A stretch of DNA of 44,661 bases from Escherichia phage HH3, in the sequence record PP759150, one strand, 5' to 3'. Position numbers and translations under genes: made by a program. This document shows positions 17,078-28,980 of the stretch, piece by piece (position 1 is the first letter of the stretch; each line of letters starts with the position of its first letter). The notes below the pieces were generated by a model. That model was not told the DNA's origin. It did no database searches and saw nothing but the letters and a program-made list of their open reading frames with translations.

Positions 17078-19717
17078 ATGGCAGATCAGGCAGCGGGCAT
17101 TACGCTCAAGGCGGACGTCGCGCAAATTAAAACGGCGAATACTGTGCTGGACACATTTGCGCAGAAATCCGAGAACACAGAACAGAAAGTAAAGAAATTA
17201 AACGACACCCTCGGCAACACGAAAAAGGTCACTGGTGACGCCGCGGGTGGAATGGGGAAGTTAGCGACTGAATCGCAGCGCGCCGCCGACGGCATGACGA
17301 AACAGGAGCGACTCGCCAGCCGATTAGGCATGTCGACCAAAAACCTGGGATTCGCATCGCGAAACGCCGCATTTCAGTTACAGGATATCGCGGTAACGCT
17401 TGAAATGGGTATGCCGGTGCATCGAGTCATGCTTCAGCAGCTACCACAGCTTACTGGGGCGTTTGGCGGGTTGGGTAACACACTGCGTTATTTCGTCGGC
17501 ACCCTCGGCCCGTTAGGGGTTGGCCTCGCGGCATTAACGGCAACGCTAGGCGTAGGGGTGGCAATTACGTCCCGCGCAGAAAACCAGGTAGCGGCGCTCA
17601 ACAAGACGCTGGCGCTTTCCGGTAATATTTCTGGCCTCACCGCTAACCAGATCCTGGTGCTATCCGAGAACGCCGAGCGGATGGGCGGGTCATTCCGCAA
17701 GACGCGAGACACAATTCAGTCACTGGCGGCGGCGGGTGTGAAAGCGGGTGCGGACTTCGGCGGGTTAGCTAAGGTGGTTAATGACTTTGCAAAGACGTCG
17801 GGCCAGCCTATTGAGGACGTGGTATCGTCGGTGGCGAAATTGTCAAACGACCCAGTAGGCGGTTTGCGCGCACTGGCAGATAAGTATCACGTCGTAACCG
17901 AAGCGCAGATCCAGCAGGTGCAGTCATTGGTGAACGTGGGCCGCGAGACAGATGCGGTTGCGCTGGCGAACAAAACCGCCGCGGCGTCGTTTACCACTAT
18001 GACAAACGATATCAAGGCGAACATGGGTACGCTTGAGCGGTCGATGAACGTCGTCACATCGGCAGCTAAATCCATGTGGGACGCCATCCTGGATGTGGGC
18101 CGCGCTCAGTCCTCCAATGAGTCAGAGATGAAAGCGCGTGAATCCTTGCAGCGCATGACCACGGCTTACTATGCCGAGATGAAAGCGGTACACGCTGCCG
18201 GTGGGGTAATGACTGAAGCGCAGAAAGCACGTATTAACATGCTTTACAGCGAAATGGTCGCCCAGGAAAAAGTAGTGGCGTCGCTCACCCTGCGCAACCG
18301 CGCCGAGCGAGACAACGCCCGCGCCTCGGACGAATCAGCGAAGGAGAACGAGGAGGCCAACCGCGCTGCCCGCGACCGCGCCGCATTTGAGAAGGAATTC
18401 GCCACCAACGCGAAGAGGCGCTCCGACGAGATCGCCCGCCTCAATTTGCTGAATAAGCGCGGCGTGATTAGCGAGAAAGAGCTTGCCGAGGCGGTGAAGC
18501 AGGTAAACGAGCGCTACAAAGACCCCGCCCCGAAGAAGGCCGCCTCTGTACGGGTCGATGCCGGTACGAAAATGCTGGAAGTCGCACGGAGCGAACTGGC
18601 CCAGCTTCGAGAATCCGGCAAGCAGATCGAAGCCAACGCATCTGCGCAGACCCGCACGCAACGCGCTCAAGCGGCCTTAAACAAGCTGATCGCCGACCAT
18701 GAGCAGTTAATCGCTGCGAGCAAAGAAAGAGCGCTAACGGCAGCAGAGAAGCAGCAGATGGTGGAATTTGGACGCGTGAAGGAAGTCCGCGAGCAGATCG
18801 TCGAAGAAGCCAAATTGCTGGATGCGAAAGAGAAGCAGATCAAAGCCCACGCGCAGGTAGACGCTTTCCTCAAGAATCAGAACGCCGAAATAAAGGCCAC
18901 CGCTGCGGGCTACGCACTGTCTACGCGCGAAGCGGCTAACCTGCGCGAAGAATTGCAGCTAATCGACCGTCTGAAGAGGGTTGGCGCTAACGATACCGAT
19001 ATAGACAAGGCGGTGTCTAAGCTGCGGGAAGTGCAGGAGGCGCAGACCGGTGCTAACGCCTCGCTATGGGATGGCTTCAGCCACGGGCTTAAGGATAGCG
19101 TGGATGAAATGGGTAACGGATATACGCAGATGGCGTTGCTTACGAAATTCACGTTCAGCGCTATGCAAGACACGATGAACGAGTTTTTCGAGACCGGCAA
19201 GCTGAACGCAAAGGATATGGTTAAGTCCATCCTGAGCGAATTAATCAAGCTGGCTACCTCGCAAGCGTTCAAGTCCATCGTTGGCGCTTTCGGTGGCGGC
19301 GGCAAAAACGGATTGTTCGGCGCTATCTTCTCGGGCCTCACTAAGAATGCGGACGGCGGAGCGTACGCAGGAGGCAATCTCGCGGCCTATTCGGGGAAAG
19401 TGGTAAGCCAGCCCACCTTTTTCAGTTATGGCGTCCAGGCGTTCGCTAAGGGCGCAGGATTGATGGGTGAGGCTGGCCCCGAGGCCATCATGCCACTGAA
19501 GCGCGGGCCGGACGGGAGACTGGGCGTTGCCGCTTCTGGCGCAGGCGGAGGTATGGTCGTGACGACTAACGTTTACACGGGGGCCGGTAAAACAGACACC
19601 AGTGTGAGCGGCCCAGACCCCCGCACAGCGCAGGCGTTCGGCAAGCAAATCACCGAGGCGGTGAAGGCCGAGATCGTGAAAGCGACGAAACCGGGTGGAG
19701 TACTTTACAAACGATGA
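17078..19717 (+). CDS. tail tape measure protein (879 aa)
   Basis: Size, Ala/Gly-rich helical composition, position after G/GT and before tail-tip genes. Confidence 0.85.
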   Translation: MADQAAGITLKADVAQIKTANTVLDTFAQKSENTEQKVKKLNDTLGNTKKVTGDAAGGMGKLATESQRAADGMTKQERLASRLGMSTKNLGFASRNAAFQLQDIAVTLEMGMPVHRVMLQQLPQLTGAFGGLGNTLRYFVGTLGPLGVGLAALTATLGVGVAITSRAENQVAALNKTLALSGNISGLTANQILVLSENAERMGGSFRKTRDTIQSLAAAGVKAGADFGGLAKVVNDFAKTSGQPIEDVVSSVAKLSNDPVGGLRALADKYHVVTEAQIQQVQSLVNVGRETDAVALANKTAAASFTTMTNDIKANMGTLERSMNVVTSAAKSMWDAILDVGRAQSSNESEMKARESLQRMTTAYYAEMKAVHAAGGVMTEAQKARINMLYSEMVAQEKVVASLTLRNRAERDNARASDESAKENEEANRAARDRAAFEKEFATNAKRRSDEIARLNLLNKRGVISEKELAEAVKQVNERYKDPAPKKAASVRVDAGTKMLEVARSELAQLRESGKQIEANASAQTRTQRAQAALNKLIADHEQLIAASKERALTAAEKQQMVEFGRVKEVREQIVEEAKLLDAKEKQIKAHAQVDAFLKNQNAEIKATAAGYALSTREAANLREELQLIDRLKRVGANDTDIDKAVSKLREVQEAQTGANASLWDGFSHGLKDSVDEMGNGYTQMALLTKFTFSAMQDTMNEFFETGKLNAKDMVKSILSELIKLATSQAFKSIVGAFGGGGKNGLFGAIFSGLTKNADGGAYAGGNLAAYSGKVVSQPTFFSYGVQAFAKGAGLMGEAGPEAIMPLKRGPDGRLGVAASGAGGGMVVTTNVYTGAGKTDTSVSGPDPRTAQAFGKQITEAVKAEIVKATKPGGVLYKR

Positions 19718-19724
19718 TAAAATG

Positions 19725-19753
19725 GCCCCCACAACCATCGTGGGGGCTTTTCT
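19725..19753 (+). terminator. rho-independent terminator / attenuator after tape measure gene
   Basis: gcccccac-aaccatc-gtgggggc followed by TTTTCT. Confidence 0.6.
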
Positions 19754-20353
19754 ATGGCACAAGGTACAATCACACTAACGAACGGAAGTAAGACCGTTAC
19801 GGGCGCAGGGACGGCGTTCTTGAGCGAGATCGGGAAGGTCCGCGTATTCGCCCGCATCGACGGCAACGACTACACCGGCAAAATAGCCGCATTCAACTCG
19901 GATACAGAAATCACCCTGGCGGATAACTGGGCCGGTCCAACGAAATCCGGTGCGGTATATGAGCTAATCGAAGCGCACGACCCGCGGTCAAACGAATGGC
20001 CCTATTACTGGCACATGCAATTGCAAGGCGGCGGGGACGTGCAGTTGGCTTTCCGGTCCGAGGAATTGCAATTTGGTAACGGTTACGGTCAGAACATCGC
20101 GGACGGCCCGAACGCCGAAACTAAACAATTCCCCGTGCAATTCGTCGGACTGACTACCGACAAGTGGTGTAACCCTAAGCTGGTTTACAACTTCCTTCGC
20201 GGGCACTTCGTCAAGCCGTTTGTCGTCACAGCACCGGATGGCGAAACAGGTTTATTCGTGGTCGAGCGTTCGAGCTTGTCGTACACTGACAACGGGCACT
20301 ACACGGCAACGGTGTCCGCCACCCTTAAGACAGCTATTGGATTCGTAAGATGA
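19754..20353 (+). CDS. minor tail protein (lambda M position), 199 aa
   Basis: Position; N-terminus GTITLTNGSKTVTGAGTAF resembles the tail fiber N-terminus at 26659. Confidence 0.55.
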   Translation: MAQGTITLTNGSKTVTGAGTAFLSEIGKVRVFARIDGNDYTGKIAAFNSDTEITLADNWAGPTKSGAVYELIEAHDPRSNEWPYYWHMQLQGGGDVQLAFRSEELQFGNGYGQNIADGPNAETKQFPVQFVGLTTDKWCNPKLVYNFLRGHFVKPFVVTAPDGETGLFVVERSSLSYTDNGHYTATVSATLKTAIGFVR

Positions 20354-21138
20354 ATAAACTATATCGCGAGGCAACGCGCTTTGACCCATCGGGCCGCGTT
20401 CGCCTGATTCACATTGACGCACAGGACGTGGAGCCAGGCGACGGCGCGATCGGCGCAGGCCACCACTATTTTCACTATTGCTTTATTCCGCACACTGCCG
20501 ATGATATTGCCGCCGCCGGGGGAGACGAAGACAAGCTGAAGCCGAAATCCATCTTCTTCGGTGGGCAGGAGTTTGAATTTTGGCCCTTCGATTTATCCGG
20601 CCTTAACTTCTCCACATCAACGGCAGCAGAACCGCAGCTAACCATCGTCGATATTGGCGGGGTTATCACCAGGCTATCCCTGAATCACGACCAGCTACTG
20701 GGCGCGAAGGTTGAAATCATCGACACGTTTGCGAAGTTTCTGGACAACGGACCTGATCCAGACCCAACGCAAAAACGTGTCCAGGAGTTTTACATCGACG
20801 CCCAGGTGGGCCGAAATCCAGGCAAGCAAATCACCTTCGCATTATCCTCCCCCGCGGATATGGAGGGGCAAGTAGTACCCCGCCGCCAGATCATGAACAT
20901 GTGCGAGTGGGCGCTCAATGGGAAGTACGCCAGCGGGGACGGGTGCACCTGGAACCTTGCGAAGCCCGGTATCAAGTATTACGACGAGCGAGGTAATGAA
21001 GTCATAGCGATGAACATGGACCGATGCGGTGGCTGTTTGTCCGACTGTTATCTTCGATTCGGTCAAGGGCTTGCAAACCCTAAAGCTGCGGTACTTGACT
21101 TCGGCGGCTTTCCGGGATCCAGATTAATTAAGGGGTAG
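20350..21138 (+). CDS. minor tail protein L-like (262 aa)
   Basis: Position; C-terminal Cys cluster CEW...GDGCTW...RCGGCLSDC as in lambda gpL-like proteins. Confidence 0.65.
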   Translation: MNKLYREATRFDPSGRVRLIHIDAQDVEPGDGAIGAGHHYFHYCFIPHTADDIAAAGGDEDKLKPKSIFFGGQEFEFWPFDLSGLNFSTSTAAEPQLTIVDIGGVITRLSLNHDQLLGAKVEIIDTFAKFLDNGPDPDPTQKRVQEFYIDAQVGRNPGKQITFALSSPADMEGQVVPRRQIMNMCEWALNGKYASGDGCTWNLAKPGIKYYDERGNEVIAMNMDRCGGCLSDCYLRFGQGLANPKAAVLDFGGFPGSRLIKG

Positions 21139-21140
21139 TC

Positions 21141-21881
21141 ATGTTAACGAAGAAGGTTAAAAGCGATATCGCCGCACACGTCGCGGCATGTCTGCCGGAG
21201 GAAGCCTGCGGCCTGGTTGTAATGGCGGGCCGTAAACAAGTTTTTGTCCCATGCCAGAACGTTTTCGAAGACCCGACCGGTGCGCGCTCACGTAGAGACG
21301 CGTTTACTATTAGTGATACGGCATGGATGGATGCGGAGGATATGGGCGACGTCGTTCGCGTAGTCCACTCCCATCCAGGCCAGCGCGAGCTAACCCCATC
21401 ATTGGGCGACGTTAACGGATGCAACGGCAGCGGCATAGTGTGGGCCATTACCAATGAGTATGGCGACTTTATCGAGATTGACCCGGAAGACCCGCCACTG
21501 GTAGGTCGACGATTTGTTCTCGGAATTACGGATTGCTATGGCCTCGTCATGGACTGGCACAAAAAGCAGGGCGTGATTCTGCCGGACTTCCGCGTGCCGT
21601 ACAACTGGTGGGAAATGGGGGAGAACCTGTACATGGATAACTGGTACGGAGCAGGCTTCAGGGAATGCGAGGAGAATACACCGGGGGCGATGGTCATCAT
21701 GCAGATTAGCGCGCCAGTGCCAAACCATGCTGGGATCTTCCTTCCGGGCAACCAACTCCTACACCATATCTACGGCAGCATGTCGAGCGTCGTTCCCTTC
21801 CGTGCAGGATTTTTCCGCGACAATGTGGTTAAATGGGTACGTCATAAAGACCTACCGGGGAATATCACAGAATGGCAATGA
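21141..21881 (+). CDS. tail assembly protein K-like (JAB/MPN plus NlpC/P60-type domain)
   Basis: JAMM-like motif VVHSHPG; position between L-like and I-like genes. Confidence 0.7.
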   Translation: MLTKKVKSDIAAHVAACLPEEACGLVVMAGRKQVFVPCQNVFEDPTGARSRRDAFTISDTAWMDAEDMGDVVRVVHSHPGQRELTPSLGDVNGCNGSGIVWAITNEYGDFIEIDPEDPPLVGRRFVLGITDCYGLVMDWHKKQGVILPDFRVPYNWWEMGENLYMDNWYGAGFRECEENTPGAMVIMQISAPVPNHAGIFLPGNQLLHHIYGSMSSVVPFRAGFFRDNVVKWVRHKDLPGNITEWQ

Positions 21882-22486
21882 CCACCTTTAAATTATACGG
21901 CGTCTTAGGGCGTCGTTTTGGTAAAGTGCACAAGCTGGACTGCTTCACACCAGGCGAAGGCATCACCGGCCTGTGCGTGAAGTTACCAGGCTTACAGGAC
22001 TTTCTAATGTCGGCTCACCTGGAAAACATGATGTTCAAGGTGCGCAAGGGCAATCACACAATGACCGGTTACGACGAGTTGGGCGAGTTCCACGGTAACC
22101 GCGTAGTGACCATCGCGCCGGTTATGACTGGCGCAAAAAGAGGGCTAGGACAATTACTGGCGGGCGTAGCCATCGTGGTGGCATCATTCTACACTGGCGG
22201 GCTTGCTACTGCCGCTTTTGGTGCTTCAGCCGCGACCGCGGCTGCTATTGGTACGGCTACGTTTTCGTTCGGGATGTCGATGGCGCTGGGTGGCGTTATG
22301 CAATTGCTATCCCCGCAACCGAAAGGATTGCAGACACGGCAGGACGTGGACAACAAGGCGTCTTATGCGTTCGGCGGACCGGTAAACACGACCGCGCAAG
22401 GTACGGCACTTGGTGTATTATGGGGCGAGCGTGAGATCGGCGGCGCTATTATTTCCGCCGGAATCGTAACAGAGGATTTGAACTAA
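21872..22486 (+). CDS. tail assembly protein I-like (204 aa)
   Basis: Position before J; hydrophobic Gly/Ala-rich C-terminal half. Confidence 0.6.
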   Translation: MAMTTFKLYGVLGRRFGKVHKLDCFTPGEGITGLCVKLPGLQDFLMSAHLENMMFKVRKGNHTMTGYDELGEFHGNRVVTIAPVMTGAKRGLGQLLAGVAIVVASFYTGGLATAAFGASAATAAAIGTATFSFGMSMALGGVMQLLSPQPKGLQTRQDVDNKASYAFGGPVNTTAQGTALGVLWGEREIGGAIISAGIVTEDLN

Positions 22487-25400
22487 TGACGATTATCTAC
22501 GACGTCACGGGCCATAAAGGCGGCGGTGGTAAACAGCACACCCCGCAGGAAACTCCCGACAGCCTGCACTCGCAGGCTAAAGCCCGCATCTTGCTTGCAC
22601 TGGGTGAAGGTGAGTTCGAGGGGATCCCGAGCACCCGCGAATTACGGCAGCGCGTATATTTGGACGGAACGCCGATCCAGAACGCCGACCGGTCCGAAAA
22701 CTTCCCCGGCGCGCGCGTGGAGTTCCGCCCAGGCACACAGCATCAGGACGTGATTCACGGATTTTCCGCGGTGGAAAGCGAGCAAACAGTTGGTGTGAAA
22801 CTGGAATACGGCACGCCGTGGGTGCGCCAGATTAATGACACCAGTCTTGACGCCGTGCGCATTCGAATCGGTATTCCGGCTTTGTACACCAACAAAGACA
22901 ATGGCGACCTGGTGGGTGGGCGCATCGACTACAAAATTGTTGTGTACACCGACAACGCAAGTCCGCGCGAGTTCCGTTTCTCTGCCGTCGGCAAAACAAT
23001 GTCGCTGTACGAGCGAGACCACCGCATCGAGCTGCCATCGAACGTGAATACCGGCTGGCTCGTGGAGGTGCACCGCTTAACGGCAGATTCCACCTCTGCA
23101 AAAGTGGTTAACGATATCCGGGTACAATCCATTACAGAGATTATCGATGCCCGCCTGCGATATCCGCTAACCGCACTGTTGTTCGTGGAGTTCGACGCAA
23201 AGGCGTTCCAGAACATCCCGCGCGTATCCATTAAGTGCAAAGGACGAAAAGTTCTAATCCCGAACAACTACGACCCGATTAATCATACTTATTCTGGCGA
23301 CTGGGACGGGACGTTTAAACGCGCATGGACGGATAACCCGGCGTGGCACTGGTATGATATCTGTATTACGGAGCGCTTCGGCCTCGGTCGCCGGATAAAG
23401 CCGCAAATGCTAAACCGTTACGCGCTCTACCAGATTGCGCAGCGCTGCGATCAGATGGTAAGCGACGGAAACGGCGGACGGGAAATCCGCTTTAAGAATG
23501 ATATGTACATCCAGTCGCAGACCGACGCATGGACCGTGCTTAAGGATTTAGCAGCCATCTTTGCTGGTATGACCTGGTGGGGAAACCAGATGTTGAATAT
23601 CGTCAGTGACCAGCCGGTCGCAGCGGTATCGCACACTATCACCAACGCCTCGGTAATTGATGGGCGATTCGACTATGCGTCTGGCAGCCAGAAAACCCGG
23701 TATTCCACGTTCGCGGTAGCATACGGCAACCCGAAGAACCACTACGAGGACGCCATCGCAACGGGCCAGCGCGTCGAACTGGTGCGTCGCCATAAGATTA
23801 ACCGCCTCGATATTACGGCGATCGGCTGTACGCGTGAGTCTGAAGCGCAACGCCGTGGGCACTGGGCGCTAATCTCCAACCAACTCGACCAGCAAGTTAG
23901 CTTTAAGGTTGGCATGGAGGGACTTTTCTTTATTCCGGGTAGCGTAGTCGCTATCGCGGATACTAACATTTCCGGCGGCTTCGAGACCCGCGGCGGACGC
24001 CTGTTGTCAGATCCGGGCACGCGTACTGTGCTGAACACGGACAGCGAAATCACGTTCCGCCCTGGTGACAAATTCCTGGTGCGCACCGATAGCGGTAATG
24101 TGGAGACTCGCGAGATTGCCAGCGTCAACGGCAACAAGGTTATGCTGAAAAACGCACTGGATGCCGACCCGATTCCCGATCAACCGTTTTGCGTTGATGG
24201 CGATGATATCCAGTTGCAGAAGTTCCGCATCACCGACCTGGAATATGACGACGCTACCAGCACTTTCTCGGTGCGCGGGATTGAATACCACGACAGCAAA
24301 TATGATGCCGTTGATAATGGCGCGCGCCTTGATCCGGGCATCTTTACGCAAGTTCCCGACGGCGTAATTAAGGGGCCGGAATCCGTGACCATCACCCCGT
24401 CGCAGATCTCATCACAAGGCCAGCTAATCACCAACGTGGATATTGTTTTCCCTCCGGTGAAAGATGCCGTTGTGTACGAAATCCAGTGGCGGCGCACCAG
24501 CTTGCAGAATATGGAAATCCAGTGGGGTAACGACTGGGTGAATATCCCCCGCACGGCATCGAACGGCGCGCACATCCCTAACGTGTTCTCCGGCAACTAC
24601 CAGGCCCGCGTCCGCGCGATCGGTATGGGCGAGATTTCATCCCCGTGGGTGGAGTCTGCCATCACGCCGGTAGAAGGTCGTCTCGGCGGGCTTAACGCGC
24701 CTATCATCACCAACGCGATTTCTGGCCTCCACCAGATTTTGTGGAAGTGGAACCATAACAACGCCGCGACGGATATCTCTTACACCGAGCTTGAAGTGCG
24801 TAAGACCGGAGAGACGGAATGGAAATTTCTTACAAACGTCCCATACCCGGGGGCGGAGTATGCCCAAACGTCGCTGGAGTTCGGGATCTATCAGCAGTTG
24901 CGCGCCCGTGTAGCTGATAAAATCGGCAACCTGTCGGACTGGTCGGACCCGTTTGAAGGGCAGGTGAGTGACAAAGTTGACGAGTACATGAAGGGGCTTG
25001 ATGACGAGTTCTTGACTTCCGAGGATGGTAGACGCTTCCAGGAAGCGATCGACACCATGCCGCAGGGCATTTACGAGGCGATTCTCACCGACGCGCAGCA
25101 ATTATTTAACGCCCGCGCCGAGTACAAGGGTATTTATGCGGAAATCTCGGTGGCATATAACGTGGCGGCGGACGCCCACAAGGCTGTCGCTCAACTGGAG
25201 ACGTTGATCGGCACGCGACTCGACGATGCTGAAGCGGCGATCCACACGTTGCAGACGGCACAGAGTACGCAAGAACAAGCCTTCGCCCAGTATCAGCAAA
25301 CTGTTGCCGCTAAGTTCGCGGATCAGGAAGCTGCCATCCAGCAGGTACAAACGGCAACGGCGGACGTAGCTGGCGCGCTGGCGGAGTACAAAACCCAGGT

Positions 25401-26304
25401 CGCGGCACAGTTCGGTCAGCAGTCCGCCGCTATTGAGCAGAAGATGACGTCCTCGTTTAACCATGCGGGTGGTAACGCCACGTACAGCCTTAAGGCGGGC
25501 GTGACGTATAACGGGACCTACTATGACGCCGGTATGCAGCTTTCCGTCGTGGCGGAGGGTGGCGCGGTTAAATCCCGCATCGCGTTCAAAGCGGACCAGT
25601 TCTACATCATGCACCCGTCTAATGGGACGCTTTCGTCCGCGTTTATCGTGGATGGCGGGCAGGTGTATATCGACACGGCGCGCATTAAAGACGCATCTAT
25701 CAACTTTGCGCAGATCACGGACACGCTGCGGTCTGATGGCTTCTTAACAGGGTCACGCGGCTGGAACCTGCCTAAATCGGGTAATGCGGAGTTTAACAAC
25801 GCGACAGTCCGCGGCACCGTTTACGCGAGTGATGGTGTGTTTAAGGGCACGGTTTATGCAAGGGATGGGGTATTTACCGGAACGGTCGAAGCCACCAGCT
25901 TTGTCGGTGACGTTGCAAATATGTGTGTTATTGGTGCGAAAGCAATCCCAAACACAGACAGGAATGGGTCAAGGTCATGGTCGGTGACTTTCAACGACTC
26001 GTCCAGGTCATCGAAACTCAAAGACTTTGTGTTGCTGTTAAGTTACTCACTGGTCGGGCACACCGCAAGCCAGTCAAGTCGCATTGCTGTTACCGCCAAT
26101 ATTGGCGGTAAAGTAGTATCAAGGACTATTGAGCGAGCGGCAAGCGGAAACGCAATCCATACAACGATTCCTTTAGCTGCGGAAGGTGTAGCGGCGGGAA
26201 GTGTAACAATTAAAGTGACGGAAGTGTATACAAACGTCTACGGCAGCACATTGCACCCATCTGTAATATTAATGACTCGTGGAACTGGTAGCTGGTCGCA
26301 ATAA
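22486..26304 (+). CDS. host specificity / central tail fiber protein, lambda J-like (1272 aa)
   Basis: N-terminal GHKGGGGKQHTP and internal YSGDWDGTFKRAWTDNPAWHWYD...RCDQMVSDGNGGRE segments closely resemble lambda gpJ as I recall it. Confidence 0.9.
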   Translation: MTIIYDVTGHKGGGGKQHTPQETPDSLHSQAKARILLALGEGEFEGIPSTRELRQRVYLDGTPIQNADRSENFPGARVEFRPGTQHQDVIHGFSAVESEQTVGVKLEYGTPWVRQINDTSLDAVRIRIGIPALYTNKDNGDLVGGRIDYKIVVYTDNASPREFRFSAVGKTMSLYERDHRIELPSNVNTGWLVEVHRLTADSTSAKVVNDIRVQSITEIIDARLRYPLTALLFVEFDAKAFQNIPRVSIKCKGRKVLIPNNYDPINHTYSGDWDGTFKRAWTDNPAWHWYDICITERFGLGRRIKPQMLNRYALYQIAQRCDQMVSDGNGGREIRFKNDMYIQSQTDAWTVLKDLAAIFAGMTWWGNQMLNIVSDQPVAAVSHTITNASVIDGRFDYASGSQKTRYSTFAVAYGNPKNHYEDAIATGQRVELVRRHKINRLDITAIGCTRESEAQRRGHWALISNQLDQQVSFKVGMEGLFFIPGSVVAIADTNISGGFETRGGRLLSDPGTRTVLNTDSEITFRPGDKFLVRTDSGNVETREIASVNGNKVMLKNALDADPIPDQPFCVDGDDIQLQKFRITDLEYDDATSTFSVRGIEYHDSKYDAVDNGARLDPGIFTQVPDGVIKGPESVTITPSQISSQGQLITNVDIVFPPVKDAVVYEIQWRRTSLQNMEIQWGNDWVNIPRTASNGAHIPNVFSGNYQARVRAIGMGEISSPWVESAITPVEGRLGGLNAPIITNAISGLHQILWKWNHNNAATDISYTELEVRKTGETEWKFLTNVPYPGAEYAQTSLEFGIYQQLRARVADKIGNLSDWSDPFEGQVSDKVDEYMKGLDDEFLTSEDGRRFQEAIDTMPQGIYEAILTDAQQLFNARAEYKGIYAEISVAYNVAADAHKAVAQLETLIGTRLDDAEAAIHTLQTAQSTQEQAFAQYQQTVAAKFADQEAAIQQVQTATADVAGALAEYKTQVAAQFGQQSAAIEQKMTSSFNHAGGNATYSLKAGVTYNGTYYDAGMQLSVVAEGGAVKSRIAFKADQFYIMHPSNGTLSSAFIVDGGQVYIDTARIKDASINFAQITDTLRSDGFLTGSRGWNLPKSGNAEFNNATVRGTVYASDGVFKGTVYARDGVFTGTVEATSFVGDVANMCVIGAKAIPNTDRNGSRSWSVTFNDSSRSSKLKDFVLLLSYSLVGHTASQSSRIAVTANIGGKVVSRTIERAASGNAIHTTIPLAAEGVAAGSVTIKVTEVYTNVYGSTLHPSVILMTRGTGSWSQ

Positions 26305-26310
26305 ACAATT

Positions 26311-26337
26311 AGCCCCTCATTCGAGGGGCTATCTTTT
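26311..26337. terminator. bidirectional rho-independent terminator
   Basis: agcccctc-attc-gaggggct followed by ATCTTTT. Confidence 0.65.
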
Positions 26338-26578
26338 AATAATCAATGACGCAGTTTGATGGGGAACCAATCCTGCGGTGTTCGTGGCTAATCTCCTGGC
26401 ACCACTGACCGGTATATGGTAGCTTTTCGGTATCGTAAACCAAAGACCCGTCTTCATGTCGCTCAATAGGATGAGGTATTACACCCGAATTTGGAACGCC
26501 TGTGTTTAAGCCATTGCCACATGCTGTCATTAGAAGGCACGCCGCGGGTATTATCAGATTTTTGATTAAAGTTTTCAT
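26336..26578 (-). CDS. small lipoprotein (80 aa), candidate receptor-blocking superinfection exclusion protein
   Basis: Strong RBS ggagatga; signal peptide MKTLIKNLIIPAACLLMTAC with lipobox Cys; encoded antisense between J-like gene and tail fiber gene. Confidence 0.55.
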   Translation of the reverse strand: MKTLIKNLIIPAACLLMTACGNGLNTGVPNSGVIPHPIERHEDGSLVYDTEKLPYTGQWCQEISHEHRRIGSPSNCVIDY

Positions 26579-26658
26579 GGTATCATCTCCTGTATTGGGT
26601 TGAGTTTTAGTATTACACCGCTCAACCAAGAATGCAACCAATTTAAGAGGATTCAGCT

Positions 26659-28980
26659 ATGGCAGCGGGTACGCTCTCCGTAACGAACAATAGCAAGGCG
26701 GTAGTAGGGGTTGGCACAACGTTTACCGCGTTCAAGGCTGGCGACTTTCTGTCGCTGGTAGTGGGGCAAGCCCCTTACACAATCGCAATTTCATCCATTG
26801 AAAGCGACACTGCGCTAACGCTGGTGCTGCCGTTCGACGGCCCAACGGCAACGGGACTCGCCTGGGACGGCATCAAACGTGACACCATGTCACTGGCAAC
26901 GATGGGCGTAACCGTACAGGCACAGAAAGCATTGCGCTTGATGATTGCAGATGAAAACAACTGGCGTGCAATCTTCGGCGACGCTGAAGAAATCACAGTC
27001 ACACTCCCGAACGGGCAGGTTATGCAGGGCATGTCATGGGGCTATCTGTCGCAGTTGATGAAGGAAATCGACCCCGTTGAGATGCGCAACCTGCAACAAC
27101 AAGCCGCTGCGGCGGAGGCTGCCGCGCAGGGGTTTTGCAATGAGGCCGAAGGCTTCAAAAACGACACCAATACCATCAAGACGCAGACCGACCAGATTAA
27201 GACTGATACGCAGGCCATCAAAGACCAGACGAACCAGATTAAGACTGACACCGGCGTTATGAGGGACGAGGCCAACACCGCGAAGACGGACGCGCAAGCT
27301 GCCAGCGCCGCCGCGCAGGGCTTCCGCGATCAGGCCGAAGAATTGGCGCAAAGCATAAACCCAGATAACCTGCTAACCAAATCCGGCAACCTGGCAGGAC
27401 TCACCGACAAACCGCAAACCTGGCTTAACGTTCGCCCGGACGGGGCGACGCCACTGGCGGGCGACCCAGTAGGTGACTACGACGCCGCGACAAAGCGTTG
27501 GGTAGAGAACCTGATTAACACAGGTACTGTCGGGCCTACTATGAACGGCGTGATGAACTACGGTGTAGGTCAGGTTACGCTGTGGCATTCTCGCGCGTTC
27601 ATTCCGTCTTACGCAGTTGTTGCAGACGGCCAGTTGTTGTCACGTACAGCTTACCCTGAACTGTGGGCACATGCTCAGATGCACAACCCTATCAACGACA
27701 GCGTATGGTTAACGGGTAGCGGCAATCGCGCTAAATTCTCAACAGGTGACGGTAGTACCACGTTCCGTGTACCGGACCTCAACGGTGTTCAAGCTGGGTC
27801 GCCGGCGAATCTTTTCGGGCGCGGGTCCAACGGGTCCAGTAATTTGCTACCCGGTACAACCTTGGAAAGTGCGTTACCTGATATCGCAGGTGAAAGCCCT
27901 TCGACTCTGATTCGTTACGTCGACGCAGCTTCTGCGGCGTTTCGGACTACGGAGGTAAGTACTTACGGTTACGGCTCGGATACAAACAACGCGCCTATCA
28001 AGTGGAAGCAGCTGAGCTTCCGGGCCTCACGGTCATCTCCTGTTTACGGTCGCTACAATACGACCGAGGTTGTACCGAACTCTTTCGTCGGCGTATGGAT
28101 TATCCGCGCATCTGGCGGCTTCGTGGCGGCAAATACGTCGTGGTCGGTAATTAACGGTGACGCGTCTCGTCCGGCAGACGGGACGACAGCTGATGGCGGT
28201 CGCGTAATTTCGAAGTACCAGGTTAACGGAGTTGATGAAGCTATCACATCTCTTCAAGTGATGGCCCAAATTGGCGGTAAATATTATACCAGGTTGGCCG
28301 TTGAAAATGCCACGTCAAGTAATGTTGCTTGGTATGATTTTAATGAGGATGGCGGATTTTCGGCTGGCTCAATAAACTCTGCTGATAAAGTAACAGCAAA
28401 TGGACCGTTTTACTCAAGGGGTAATGGATACCCAAGCATTTGCTTTTTGTCTGATAGATACAACAATCCAAACACAAACATAGGCGCGATCACAGTCTTG
28501 GAATGCACAGGCACTGATGGAAACGTATCAACCGTCAACTTAATCAGAAGGCGGGGGGATGGAAGTCATACAGGGCAGGTGACTGTGAAATTCCCGACTA
28601 CAACAGGAACATTAGCACTGCAAGGAACATCGGGCCGCGAGTATAAGAAAGACATTGCCGATGCGGACGCAAGCGAAGCTATGGACCGCATTAACAGCCA
28701 GCGCCTTGTTAACTTCGTGTATAAGGATGATGCGCAAGCCCGCCAGCGCTTCGGTATTATCGCCGAGGAAGCGGAGTTAATTGCGCCGCAGTACGTTAAG
28801 CACCACGAGTTCCCGATCGAGGATATTCTCGACGAAGACGGCAACAAGATCGGGGAGAAAATGACGGACCGCCCATCCATCGACGTTAACCCTATCGTCA
28901 TGGATTTGATGGGATGTGTTCAATATCTCAATAAGCAGGTGGAGGATTTGAAGGCCGAGATCGCGGCGTTGAAGAAATAA
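26659..28980 (+). CDS. tail fiber protein with C-terminal intramolecular chaperone (peptidase S74-like) domain, 773 aa
   Basis: RBS aagagg; C-terminal ~150 aa resemble self-cleaving chaperone domains of endosialidase / L-shaped tail fibers; Thr/Gln-rich repeats at 27140-27300. Confidence 0.7.
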   Translation: MAAGTLSVTNNSKAVVGVGTTFTAFKAGDFLSLVVGQAPYTIAISSIESDTALTLVLPFDGPTATGLAWDGIKRDTMSLATMGVTVQAQKALRLMIADENNWRAIFGDAEEITVTLPNGQVMQGMSWGYLSQLMKEIDPVEMRNLQQQAAAAEAAAQGFCNEAEGFKNDTNTIKTQTDQIKTDTQAIKDQTNQIKTDTGVMRDEANTAKTDAQAASAAAQGFRDQAEELAQSINPDNLLTKSGNLAGLTDKPQTWLNVRPDGATPLAGDPVGDYDAATKRWVENLINTGTVGPTMNGVMNYGVGQVTLWHSRAFIPSYAVVADGQLLSRTAYPELWAHAQMHNPINDSVWLTGSGNRAKFSTGDGSTTFRVPDLNGVQAGSPANLFGRGSNGSSNLLPGTTLESALPDIAGESPSTLIRYVDAASAAFRTTEVSTYGYGSDTNNAPIKWKQLSFRASRSSPVYGRYNTTEVVPNSFVGVWIIRASGGFVAANTSWSVINGDASRPADGTTADGGRVISKYQVNGVDEAITSLQVMAQIGGKYYTRLAVENATSSNVAWYDFNEDGGFSAGSINSADKVTANGPFYSRGNGYPSICFLSDRYNNPNTNIGAITVLECTGTDGNVSTVNLIRRRGDGSHTGQVTVKFPTTTGTLALQGTSGREYKKDIADADASEAMDRINSQRLVNFVYKDDAQARQRFGIIAEEAELIAPQYVKHHEFPIEDILDEDGNKIGEKMTDRPSIDVNPIVMDLMGCVQYLNKQVEDLKAEIAALKK

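Follow-up and report, generated by a model that had tools for sequence, protein, structure and literature searches.

A fibre-anchor barrel shared by the distal tail protein and the lateral tail fibre of Escherichia phage HH3

Two tail genes of Escherichia phage HH3, present in the stretch of DNA analysed here (sequence record PP759150; 44,661 nucleotides, called the window below), encode proteins that begin with homologous domains. The first protein (19754-20353, + strand, 199 amino acids) is a distal tail protein (Dit) of the ‘evolved’ type, namely a core of the lambda gpM type combined with an anciently acquired fibre-anchor barrel; the second (26659-28980, + strand, 773 amino acids) is the lateral tail fibre, which starts with a barrel of its own. 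An earlier note, made from the sequence alone, had delimited both open reading frames correctly but took the first product for a tail-tip protein that would be a second fibre-like component. That part of the note is not upheld, and the annotation ‘minor tail protein’ is corrected here to a two-domain evolved Dit, which is not a fibre. As to what the extra barrel does, the chances appear evenly balanced that it is an accessory and exchangeable decoration, with the fibre seated more likely on the shaft of the central fibre protein gpJ. The architecture as such is already known from more than 150 sequenced phages, from PHROG 9922 and from a deposited structure, which limits its novelty.

A distal tail protein and a fibre with homologous N-termini

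Residues 86-187 of the 199-residue protein match Pfam family PF05939 (Phage_min_tail) with 44.5 bits for a cut-off of 39, and the protein also matches PHROG 14 and PHROG 9922. It is ~94% identical (E=7e-130) to chain 23gd_B of the Protein Data Bank (PDB), deposited as ‘Distal tail protein gp20’, and its gene occupies the canonical Dit slot, between those encoding the tape measure protein (TMP) and gpL. Residues 83-199 constitute a domain of the gpM tail-tube fold. Entry 23gd also holds a ‘Hub protein gp21’ (the gpL homologue) and a ‘J-like tail tip protein gp24’, while related entries hold the tube protein gp15. Gene numbers, a J protein of 1148 residues and an identical Dit N-terminus (83 residues compared) identify the source of 23gd as phage Oekolampad (Bas18), a Dhillonvirus; a literature search found no publication on the Oekolampad virion entries 23gd, 10lj and 10xw. 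Two gp20 chains are present per asymmetric unit of 23gd, beside single hub and J chains, and there is indirect support, by way of this near-identical protein, for a hexameric ring that Dit would form between tube and hub in the virion.

The limits of the added part follow from alignments with lambda gpM and with plain Dits. Residue W6 of lambda gpM aligns with W86 of the window protein, which is invariant; the tube-fold core begins at about residue 82, and plain Dits begin 2-5 residues ahead of the invariant tryptophan. Residues 1-73, together with a linker of nine residues, are thus an N-terminal addition. An internal start that would yield a barrel-less Dit was considered and rejected on sequence inspection alone, there being no methionine at the core boundary. 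The domains of the two proteins are as follows.

19754..19972 (+): N-terminal domain of Dit, a beta-barrel of ~73 residues (BLASTP, E=1e-8; hidden Markov model (HMM), E=4.7e-20; PDB chain 25ve_A, E=0.002; AlphaFold2)
19973..19999 (+): linker EAHDPRSNE between the N-terminal domain and the Dit core (alignments; drop in pLDDT, the AlphaFold2 confidence score)
20000..20353 (+): Dit core, gpM-type tail-tube fold
26659..26877 (+): N-terminal domain of the fibre (residues 1-73)
26878..27093 (+): fibre stem helix (residues 74-105) and a small hairpin/helix module, the rest of the conserved anchor (AlphaFold2)
27094..28980 (+): coiled-coil shaft of the fibre and distal part resembling the L-shaped fibre of T5, with a C-terminal intramolecular chaperone

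The second-fibre reading of the 199-residue protein could draw on its N-terminal domain, which is the same as that of the fibre. It is nevertheless contradicted by the gpM tube fold of residues 83-199, by the position of the gene between those of TMP and gpL and by the near-identical protein modelled as distal tail protein in 23gd. Moreover, the protein has no stem helix, shaft or tip, and its barrel runs straight into the tube-fold core, so that this reading can be regarded as refuted, with hardly any probability left to it.

The N-terminal resemblance is real, and the two domains are homologous. The motif that had first drawn attention occupies residues 4-22 in both proteins, as GTITLTNGSKTVTGAGTAF in the 199-residue protein and GTLSVTNNSKAVVGVGTTF in the 773-residue fibre. 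Similarity is not confined to this short segment and spans the whole domain of ~73 residues, since a gap-free BLASTP alignment covers residues 1-73 of each (26/73 identical, or 36%; 40/73 positive; E=1e-8); the refuting condition named in the earlier note, a likeness restricted to the motif, thus does not apply. When an HMM was trained exclusively on the N-termini of fibres from other organisms, leaving the window out, it recovered the Dit N-terminus at E=4.7e-20 and the window fibre at E=8e-27; it found no third copy among the six-frame open reading frames of the window, which thus has exactly two. AlphaFold2 models of both N-termini predict six strands in identical order (residues 4-8, 14-18, 28-35, 38-49, 52-55 and 64-73 in Dit; 5-8, 14-18, 30-35, 38-49, 52-55 and 64-72 in the fibre), with pLDDT values of 80-89 for the Dit barrel.

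The earlier note had proposed a common domain or an ancient duplication, and a homologous domain of ancient origin is indeed what is found. Nucleotide identity between the two copies is 46%, and it falls to 30% at third codon positions, which marks the similarity as ancient protein homology and not as the outcome of recent duplication or gene conversion. A recent intragenomic event between the 5′ ends of the two genes would account for the equal position of the motif in both proteins; it is refuted by this codon-level divergence and is extremely improbable, considering also that the fibre of its own phage (36%) is no closer to the Dit copy than are the pyocin fibre and the fibres of Midgardsormr38 (47%) and HK225 (42%), and that the Dit fusion is fixed throughout the genus. 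Chance or compositional resemblance of two Gly/Thr-rich N-termini, suggested by segments rich in G, T, S and V, has a negligible probability, being refuted by the HMM result, by the equal predicted strand topology and by 5,000 composition-preserving shuffles scored locally with BLOSUM62, none of which reached the observed values either for the whole 80 residues (score 107 versus 26.7 +/- 4.9, z=16) or for residues 23-80, with the motif excluded (59 versus 21.6 +/- 4.4, z=8.5).

The barrel belongs to the family of the F-pyocin-type ‘OB’ anchor (PyoF13 residues ~2-80), in view of both sequence homology and a small six-stranded beta-barrel. Residues 3-80 of Dit match residues 6-81 of the F2-pyocin side fibre (25ve_A) in phmmer at E=0.002; for the fibre copy the direct match has E=0.56, and the family link passes through the profile HMM (E=8e-27) and the PHROG tail-fibre families. 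The layout of barrel followed by stem helix is found in the fibre copy (barrel 1-72, then directly the long helix 74-105, as modelled by AlphaFold2) and not in the Dit copy, where the linker leads into the tube fold. An exhaustive HMMER search of 1.84 billion representative sequences returned 7,465 proteins with the barrel at E<=1e-3, most of them prophage or phage fibres of 250-800 residues carrying it at residues 1-77; a great many enterobacterial siphophages and prophages, the N15-like, HK225-like and Dhillonvirus phages among them, have fibres that start with it. The top scorers are giant proteins with 4-22 tandem internal copies displaying the signature GT-x-x-V-TNGS-x-x-V-x-G-x-GT-x-F. 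The motif noted earlier is therefore the signature of a large, uncurated and modular beta-barrel family, for which there is no Pfam or NCBIfam model; neither N-terminal domain gave a Pfam match even at E<=10.

Among the giant repeat proteins, all foreign to the window, five examples (P0118, P0121, P0124, P0131 and P0168) contain 3-22 repeats of a barrel of ~65-75 residues in 660-2,894 residues; the proteins include a ‘PKD repeat protein’, a protein of an FCB-group bacterium and a cyanobacterial ‘putative baseplate assembly protein’ (MDJ0716953.1). Proteins of ~200 residues among the top representatives were examined as further Dit fusions and rejected as truncated fibres, and a word-indexed protein search with the domain profile gave only contig-end fragments of <=138 residues, without architecture information. 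No publication was found on the homology between Dit appendage and fibre anchor, on Dit/gpL cassette variants or on the size and repeats of the barrel family.

Spread, age and variants of the fused barrel

The window represents a siphophage of the Dhillonvirus type, whose tail tip is lambda-like. The 17-29 kb region of the window is a lambda-type tail-tip module according to Pfam and PHROG assignments, and the DNA of this region is ~90% identical to that of Dhillonvirus coliphages such as PaulFeyerabend/Bas15, EP23 and HK578. The module gives the following context.

17078..26304 (+): tail-tip module (Pfam, PHROG; gp20, gp21 and gp24 of PDB 23gd, and gp15)
17078-19717 (+): TMP (Pfam/PHROG)
19754-20353 (+): Dit, lambda gpM homologue, 199 residues
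20350-21138 (+): gpL, 262 residues
21141-21881 (+): gpK
21872-22486 (+): gpI
22486-26304 (+): gpJ (central fibre), 1272 residues
24970..25485 (+): helical shaft of gpJ, ~residues 829-1000, candidate fibre docking site (by analogy with F-pyocins)
26659-28980 (+): lateral tail fibre, 773 residues

Two features of the intergenic regions can be added. A G+C-rich hairpin followed by a run of T (19724-19748) lies inside the 36-nucleotide gap between TMP and Dit, with its 3′ arm adjoining the upstream side of the Dit start codon. On either strand it resembles a terminator (three such sites versus 0.3 expected per 200 nucleotides), and a terminator is annotated at the equivalent position in phage WFI. 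Between gpJ and the fibre gene, the product of the small open reading frame 26336-26578 (-), with a lipobox, is probably a lipoprotein (MKTLIKNLIIPAACLLMTAC...); the gene lies where relatives have genes annotated as ‘Phage_lipoprotein’ or superinfection exclusion.

The combination of barrel and gpM-type core is rare. It occurs in only four clusters (at least 85% identical) of a collection of 5.8 billion proteins, where the next-nearest Dits (P0005-P0010, the closest plain ones) are 56-66% identical in the core and have 122-125 residues and no barrel. Searching 50,697 phage records with tblastn located the Dit-type copy only in Dhillonvirus-like records, the weaker matches inspected being tail-fibre genes. 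Sixty-six loci with a gpM-like open reading frame were compared: a fused Dit is present in 11 of them, all Dhillonvirus, and the other 55, including those of N15, SPN3UB and Midgardsormr38, pair a plain gpM with a barrel-bearing fibre. Within the genus, each of the ~155 Dhillonvirus records retains both barrel copies. The fusion is thus confined to Dhillonvirus, is ancient and is kept under purifying selection. Ratios of non-synonymous to synonymous substitution rates (dN/dS), calculated over nine Dhillonvirus genomes, are 0.185 for the Dit N-terminal domain, 0.034 for the Dit core, 0.023 for gpL and 0.095 for the fibre N-terminal domain; the first value, which makes the Dit barrel the fastest-evolving part of the tail tip, still indicates purifying selection on a domain that is not decaying. 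In bov25_1D, the Dit barrel is only 66% identical (27/80 positions changed), beside other conserved tail genes at >=92% and an unchanged fibre anchor.

Natural variants without the Dit barrel are provided by metagenomic contigs. In three of them (L002-L004), identity with the window is 94-99% for the tube protein, 94% for TMP, 95% for gpK, 98-99% for gpI, 97% for gpJ (residues 1-840), 91-93% for the J shaft and 91-97% for fibre residues 1-145. Their Dit is plain, with 123 residues and a core 66% identical to that of the window, and their gpL has an insertion of ~150 residues after residue ~55, giving a protein of 415 residues (L002:10362-11609; likewise in L003, L004, L006 and L007) versus 262 residues in the window (20350-21138). 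The other contigs either resemble L002 (L006 and L007) or have neither the Dit barrel nor the gpL insert (L005). An HMM scan of the six loci (L002-L007) detected a single barrel, that of the fibre. The gpL insert is unrelated to the barrel and has no Pfam match; it matches weakly the ‘Megatron’ of the marine siphophage R4C (8gtc_M, residues 497-617, E=1.6e-4). A plain Dit together with a gpL insert, beside a near-identical fibre anchor, means that a cassette made of Dit and the 5′ part of gpL was exchanged while the fibre anchor was left unadjusted. The Dit/gpL-5′ region therefore behaves as an exchangeable cassette, and the Dit barrel is dispensable in sister lineages.

Docking of the lateral fibre

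Downstream of its barrel, the fibre is modelled by AlphaFold2 with the stem helix (74-105), two short strands (112-115 and 121-124) and a second helix (127-149). This part of the anchor (26878..27093) is 94-98% identical among Dhillonvirus-like phages, those with a plain Dit included. Residues 187-772 (27217-28980) align with PDB chain 8hqz_d, ‘L-shaped tail fiber assembly’ (E=1e-203), Peptidase_S74 (PF13884) is matched at residues 659-713 (38.8 bits, cut-off 22) and the Pfam model Collar at residues 360-376. By these sequence matches, the protein is classed among the T5-type L-shaped lateral tail fibres with an intramolecular chaperone. Its distal 590 residues are <=77% identical, or unrelated, in other Dhillonviruses; with a conserved anchor and a variable distal part, the fibre is a mosaic in which the tip has been swapped.

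The presumed partner of this anchor, gpJ, is a homologue of the F2-pyocin central fibre (25vf_A, E=7e-222). Co-variation was measured as pairwise divergence across 54 loci, 37 of them outside Dhillonvirus. Among the tail genes tested, it is the J shaft and the adjoining C-terminal segment of J whose divergence follows that of the fibre anchor most closely (r=0.94 for the shaft and 0.93 for the C-terminal segment; with mid-J controlled, 0.71 and 0.68 as partial correlations). In the 37 non-Dhillonvirus loci, the correlation of the anchor is 0.74 with the J shaft versus 0.45-0.49 with proximal parts of J. Between the anchor and the Dit core, the partial correlation over the 54 loci is 0.15 with the J N-terminus controlled and ~0 with mid-J controlled, and in the 37 loci the raw value is 0.19 and the partial one 0.01. 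The N-terminal domains of Dit and fibre do not co-vary detectably (Mantel r=0.20, p=0.27), in a comparison of nine Dhillonvirus genomes with low power. Lastly, no PDB entry contains a lateral-fibre chain, though the Oekolampad tail tip is deposited.

Taken together, the plain-Dit variants, the co-variation results and the missing fibre chain argue against the Dit barrel as primary dock and, with the homology of J to the pyocin central fibre, for docking on the J shaft. In the preferred mechanism, a gpM-type tube-fold core long ago gained, at its N-terminus, one copy of the kind of barrel that begins the lateral fibre of the phage and the side fibres of F-type pyocins. By analogy with the homologous pyocin side fibre, the lateral fibre would dock by its own barrel and stem helix on the helical shaft of J. 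The Dit copy would be a peripheral decoration of the Dit ring, neither a primary fibre dock nor a second fibre, and its putative function may be to steady the fibres or to adhere weakly to the cell surface. The proposal of the earlier note that the two proteins share a common attachment domain is retained in part: the solved member of the family, the F-type pyocin side fibre, does anchor fibres to a tail, whereas the same attachment of both window proteins is doubtful, because Dit would be kept in the virion via its tube-fold core and close relatives that lack the Dit copy have an unchanged fibre anchor.

The start of the J shaft displays an acidic cluster, LDDEFLTSEDG (~residues 838-848; 24997-25029), which is common to barrel-fibre phages (Dhillonvirus-like phages, N15 and, in part, SPN3UB and Midgardsormr38); lambda has in its place a stretch that contains Lys and is less acidic. 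The cluster brings to mind the acidic docking patch of the F7-pyocin shaft, a correspondence that is unproven and serves as a lead only.

Several points weigh against docking on J with a merely decorative Dit barrel. The docking segment of F2 (~residues 848-975, with a kink at 953-956) has no aligned counterpart in the shorter shaft of the window J. The correlation between anchor and distal J climbs steadily towards the fibre gene, so that genomic proximity (linkage) is a confounder. The gpL insert of L002-type phages could functionally replace the Dit N-terminal domain as a dock. That the Dit appendage is homologous to the fibre's own anchor is itself suggestive of a direct functional link, and the anchor domains of pyocins pack side by side into a ring (PMC13455828, PMC12874032, bioRxiv 10.64898/2026.02.24.707460). 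Finally, most solved siphophages dock their fibres or spikes at or around Dit, as in Ur-lambda, T5 and Sf11 (PMC12617516, PMC12724387).

A model of a shared collar is a possible if rather doubtful alternative. Six Dit barrels would form the platform of the lateral fibres, whose barrels would pack on those of Dit through lateral contacts of the pyocin-ring type. The mixed collar so formed would sit at the tube/Dit junction, as a counterpart of the collars made by Stf in Ur-lambda (a 12-mer) or by p132 in T5. The model is favoured by the position of the Dit N-terminus, located where the Ur-lambda collar touches gpM, by the lateral packing of pyocin barrels, by the docking of receptor-binding proteins on Dit extensions in Sf11 and other siphophages (PMC12724387) and by the joint conservation of both copies throughout the Dhillonvirus records; loss of the Dit copy would be tolerable if fibre barrels also bind the tube/Dit core and each other. 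It is opposed by the L002-L004 contigs, where the fibre anchor remains 91-97% identical in the absence of a Dit barrel, by the 55 loci in which plain gpM accompanies a barrel-bearing fibre, and by the lack of co-variation of the fibre with either Dit domain. In bov25_1D, moreover, changes at 27 of 80 positions of the Dit barrel left the anchor untouched, the deposited Oekolampad tip comes without any lateral-fibre chain, and in pyocins, whose Dit is plain, it is the central fibre on which the homologous fibre docks.

A more specific version, in which six Dit barrels and the barrels of lateral-fibre trimers co-assemble as one mixed collar (for example six from Dit and two from each of three fibres), is unlikely. 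Were it true, a ring protein would have captured the anchor domain of its own ligand, pre-forming half of the docking ring, and swapping of the Dit/gpL cassette (Dit barrel, gpL insert or neither) would tune the number or posture of fibres and hence the host range.

Comparison with known systems

To our knowledge, the fastening of lateral fibres to lambda-like tails is known in few systems, namely Ur-lambda, T5/DT57C and F-pyocins. The one solved context of the barrel is that of the pyocins, where attachment is to the central fibre and not to Dit. The near-isogenic barrel-less phages offer a clean test system for the role of the Dit decoration, for the docking place of the fibre and for anchor swapping in host-range engineering, within a phage group that already serves the BASEL collection and therapy-oriented work.

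The closest known system is that of Oekolampad, whose gp20 (23gd_B) resembles the window Dit in family, architecture, length (199 residues), gene order and partner proteins (23gd/10lj/10xw), with ~6% of the sequence differing, chiefly in the N-terminal barrel. The two phages differ at the far end of the tip, where Oekolampad combines a J of 1148 residues with separate downstream receptor-binding genes and the window has a J of 1272 residues with its own C-terminal extension. The J proteins diverge past residue ~1120, the extension covering 25846-26304 (~residues 1121-1272), and the window is without the separate receptor-binding genes found downstream in Oekolampad, HK578 and Bas15 (of the minus-strand DUF6453 type, or a gp25/gp26 pair); the window J itself probably includes the terminal receptor module.

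In F-type pyocins, the side fibre (PyoF13/PA0643/PA0646; 25ve/25vj) has a homologous N-terminal barrel of ~75 residues followed by a stem helix, as in the window fibre, and the central fibre is homologous to the window J. In three cryo-EM studies of 2026, the ‘OB’ domain (~residues 2-76) is described as attaching, jointly with the stem helix, three trimers of the fibre to the central fibre's coiled-coil shaft (PMC13455828, PMC12874032, bioRxiv 10.64898/2026.02.24.707460). In contrast to the window, the pyocin barrel is present on the fibre only, next to a plain Dit of 113 residues (25vf_6), whereas the window has a second copy, without stem helix, on Dit; the docking segment of the pyocin shaft cannot be aligned to the window J.

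Other Dits depart further from this arrangement. Lambda gpM and the Dit of T1 (PF05939) have 109-117 residues and, unlike the window protein, no N-terminal appendage. Tailspike anchor domains and the decoration domain of T5 pb9 are similar to the shared barrel. No sequence homology to the window Dit is detectable in the Dit of T5 (pb9), which has an OB-fold decoration domain, or in that of phage Chi, which is extended; in T5 the decoration domain is not N-terminal, and a separate collar protein, p132, anchors the fibres. Dit extensions likewise act as accessory or docking modules in the Sf11 adaptor gp17 (DTP) and in the evolved Dits of Gram-positive siphophages, where they are C-terminal or helical and unrelated in sequence, docking in Sf11 being demonstrated by structure (PMC12724387).

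Collars offer a last parallel. In Ur-lambda, residues K2 and W6 of gpM contact the dodecameric Stf collar (PMC12617516), and in the collars formed by Stf, by T5 p132 and by DT57C LtfC, small beta domains round the tube/Dit junction anchor side fibres, with the Dit N-terminus at the interface. Searching PDB sequences with Dit (E<=1) and with the fibre N-terminus (E<=10) gave no chain of lambda Stf or T5 p132, and the likeness to these collars is best seen as an analogy of position only: their domains are Ig-like, belong to a different family and sit on the fibre itself or on a separate protein, never on Dit.

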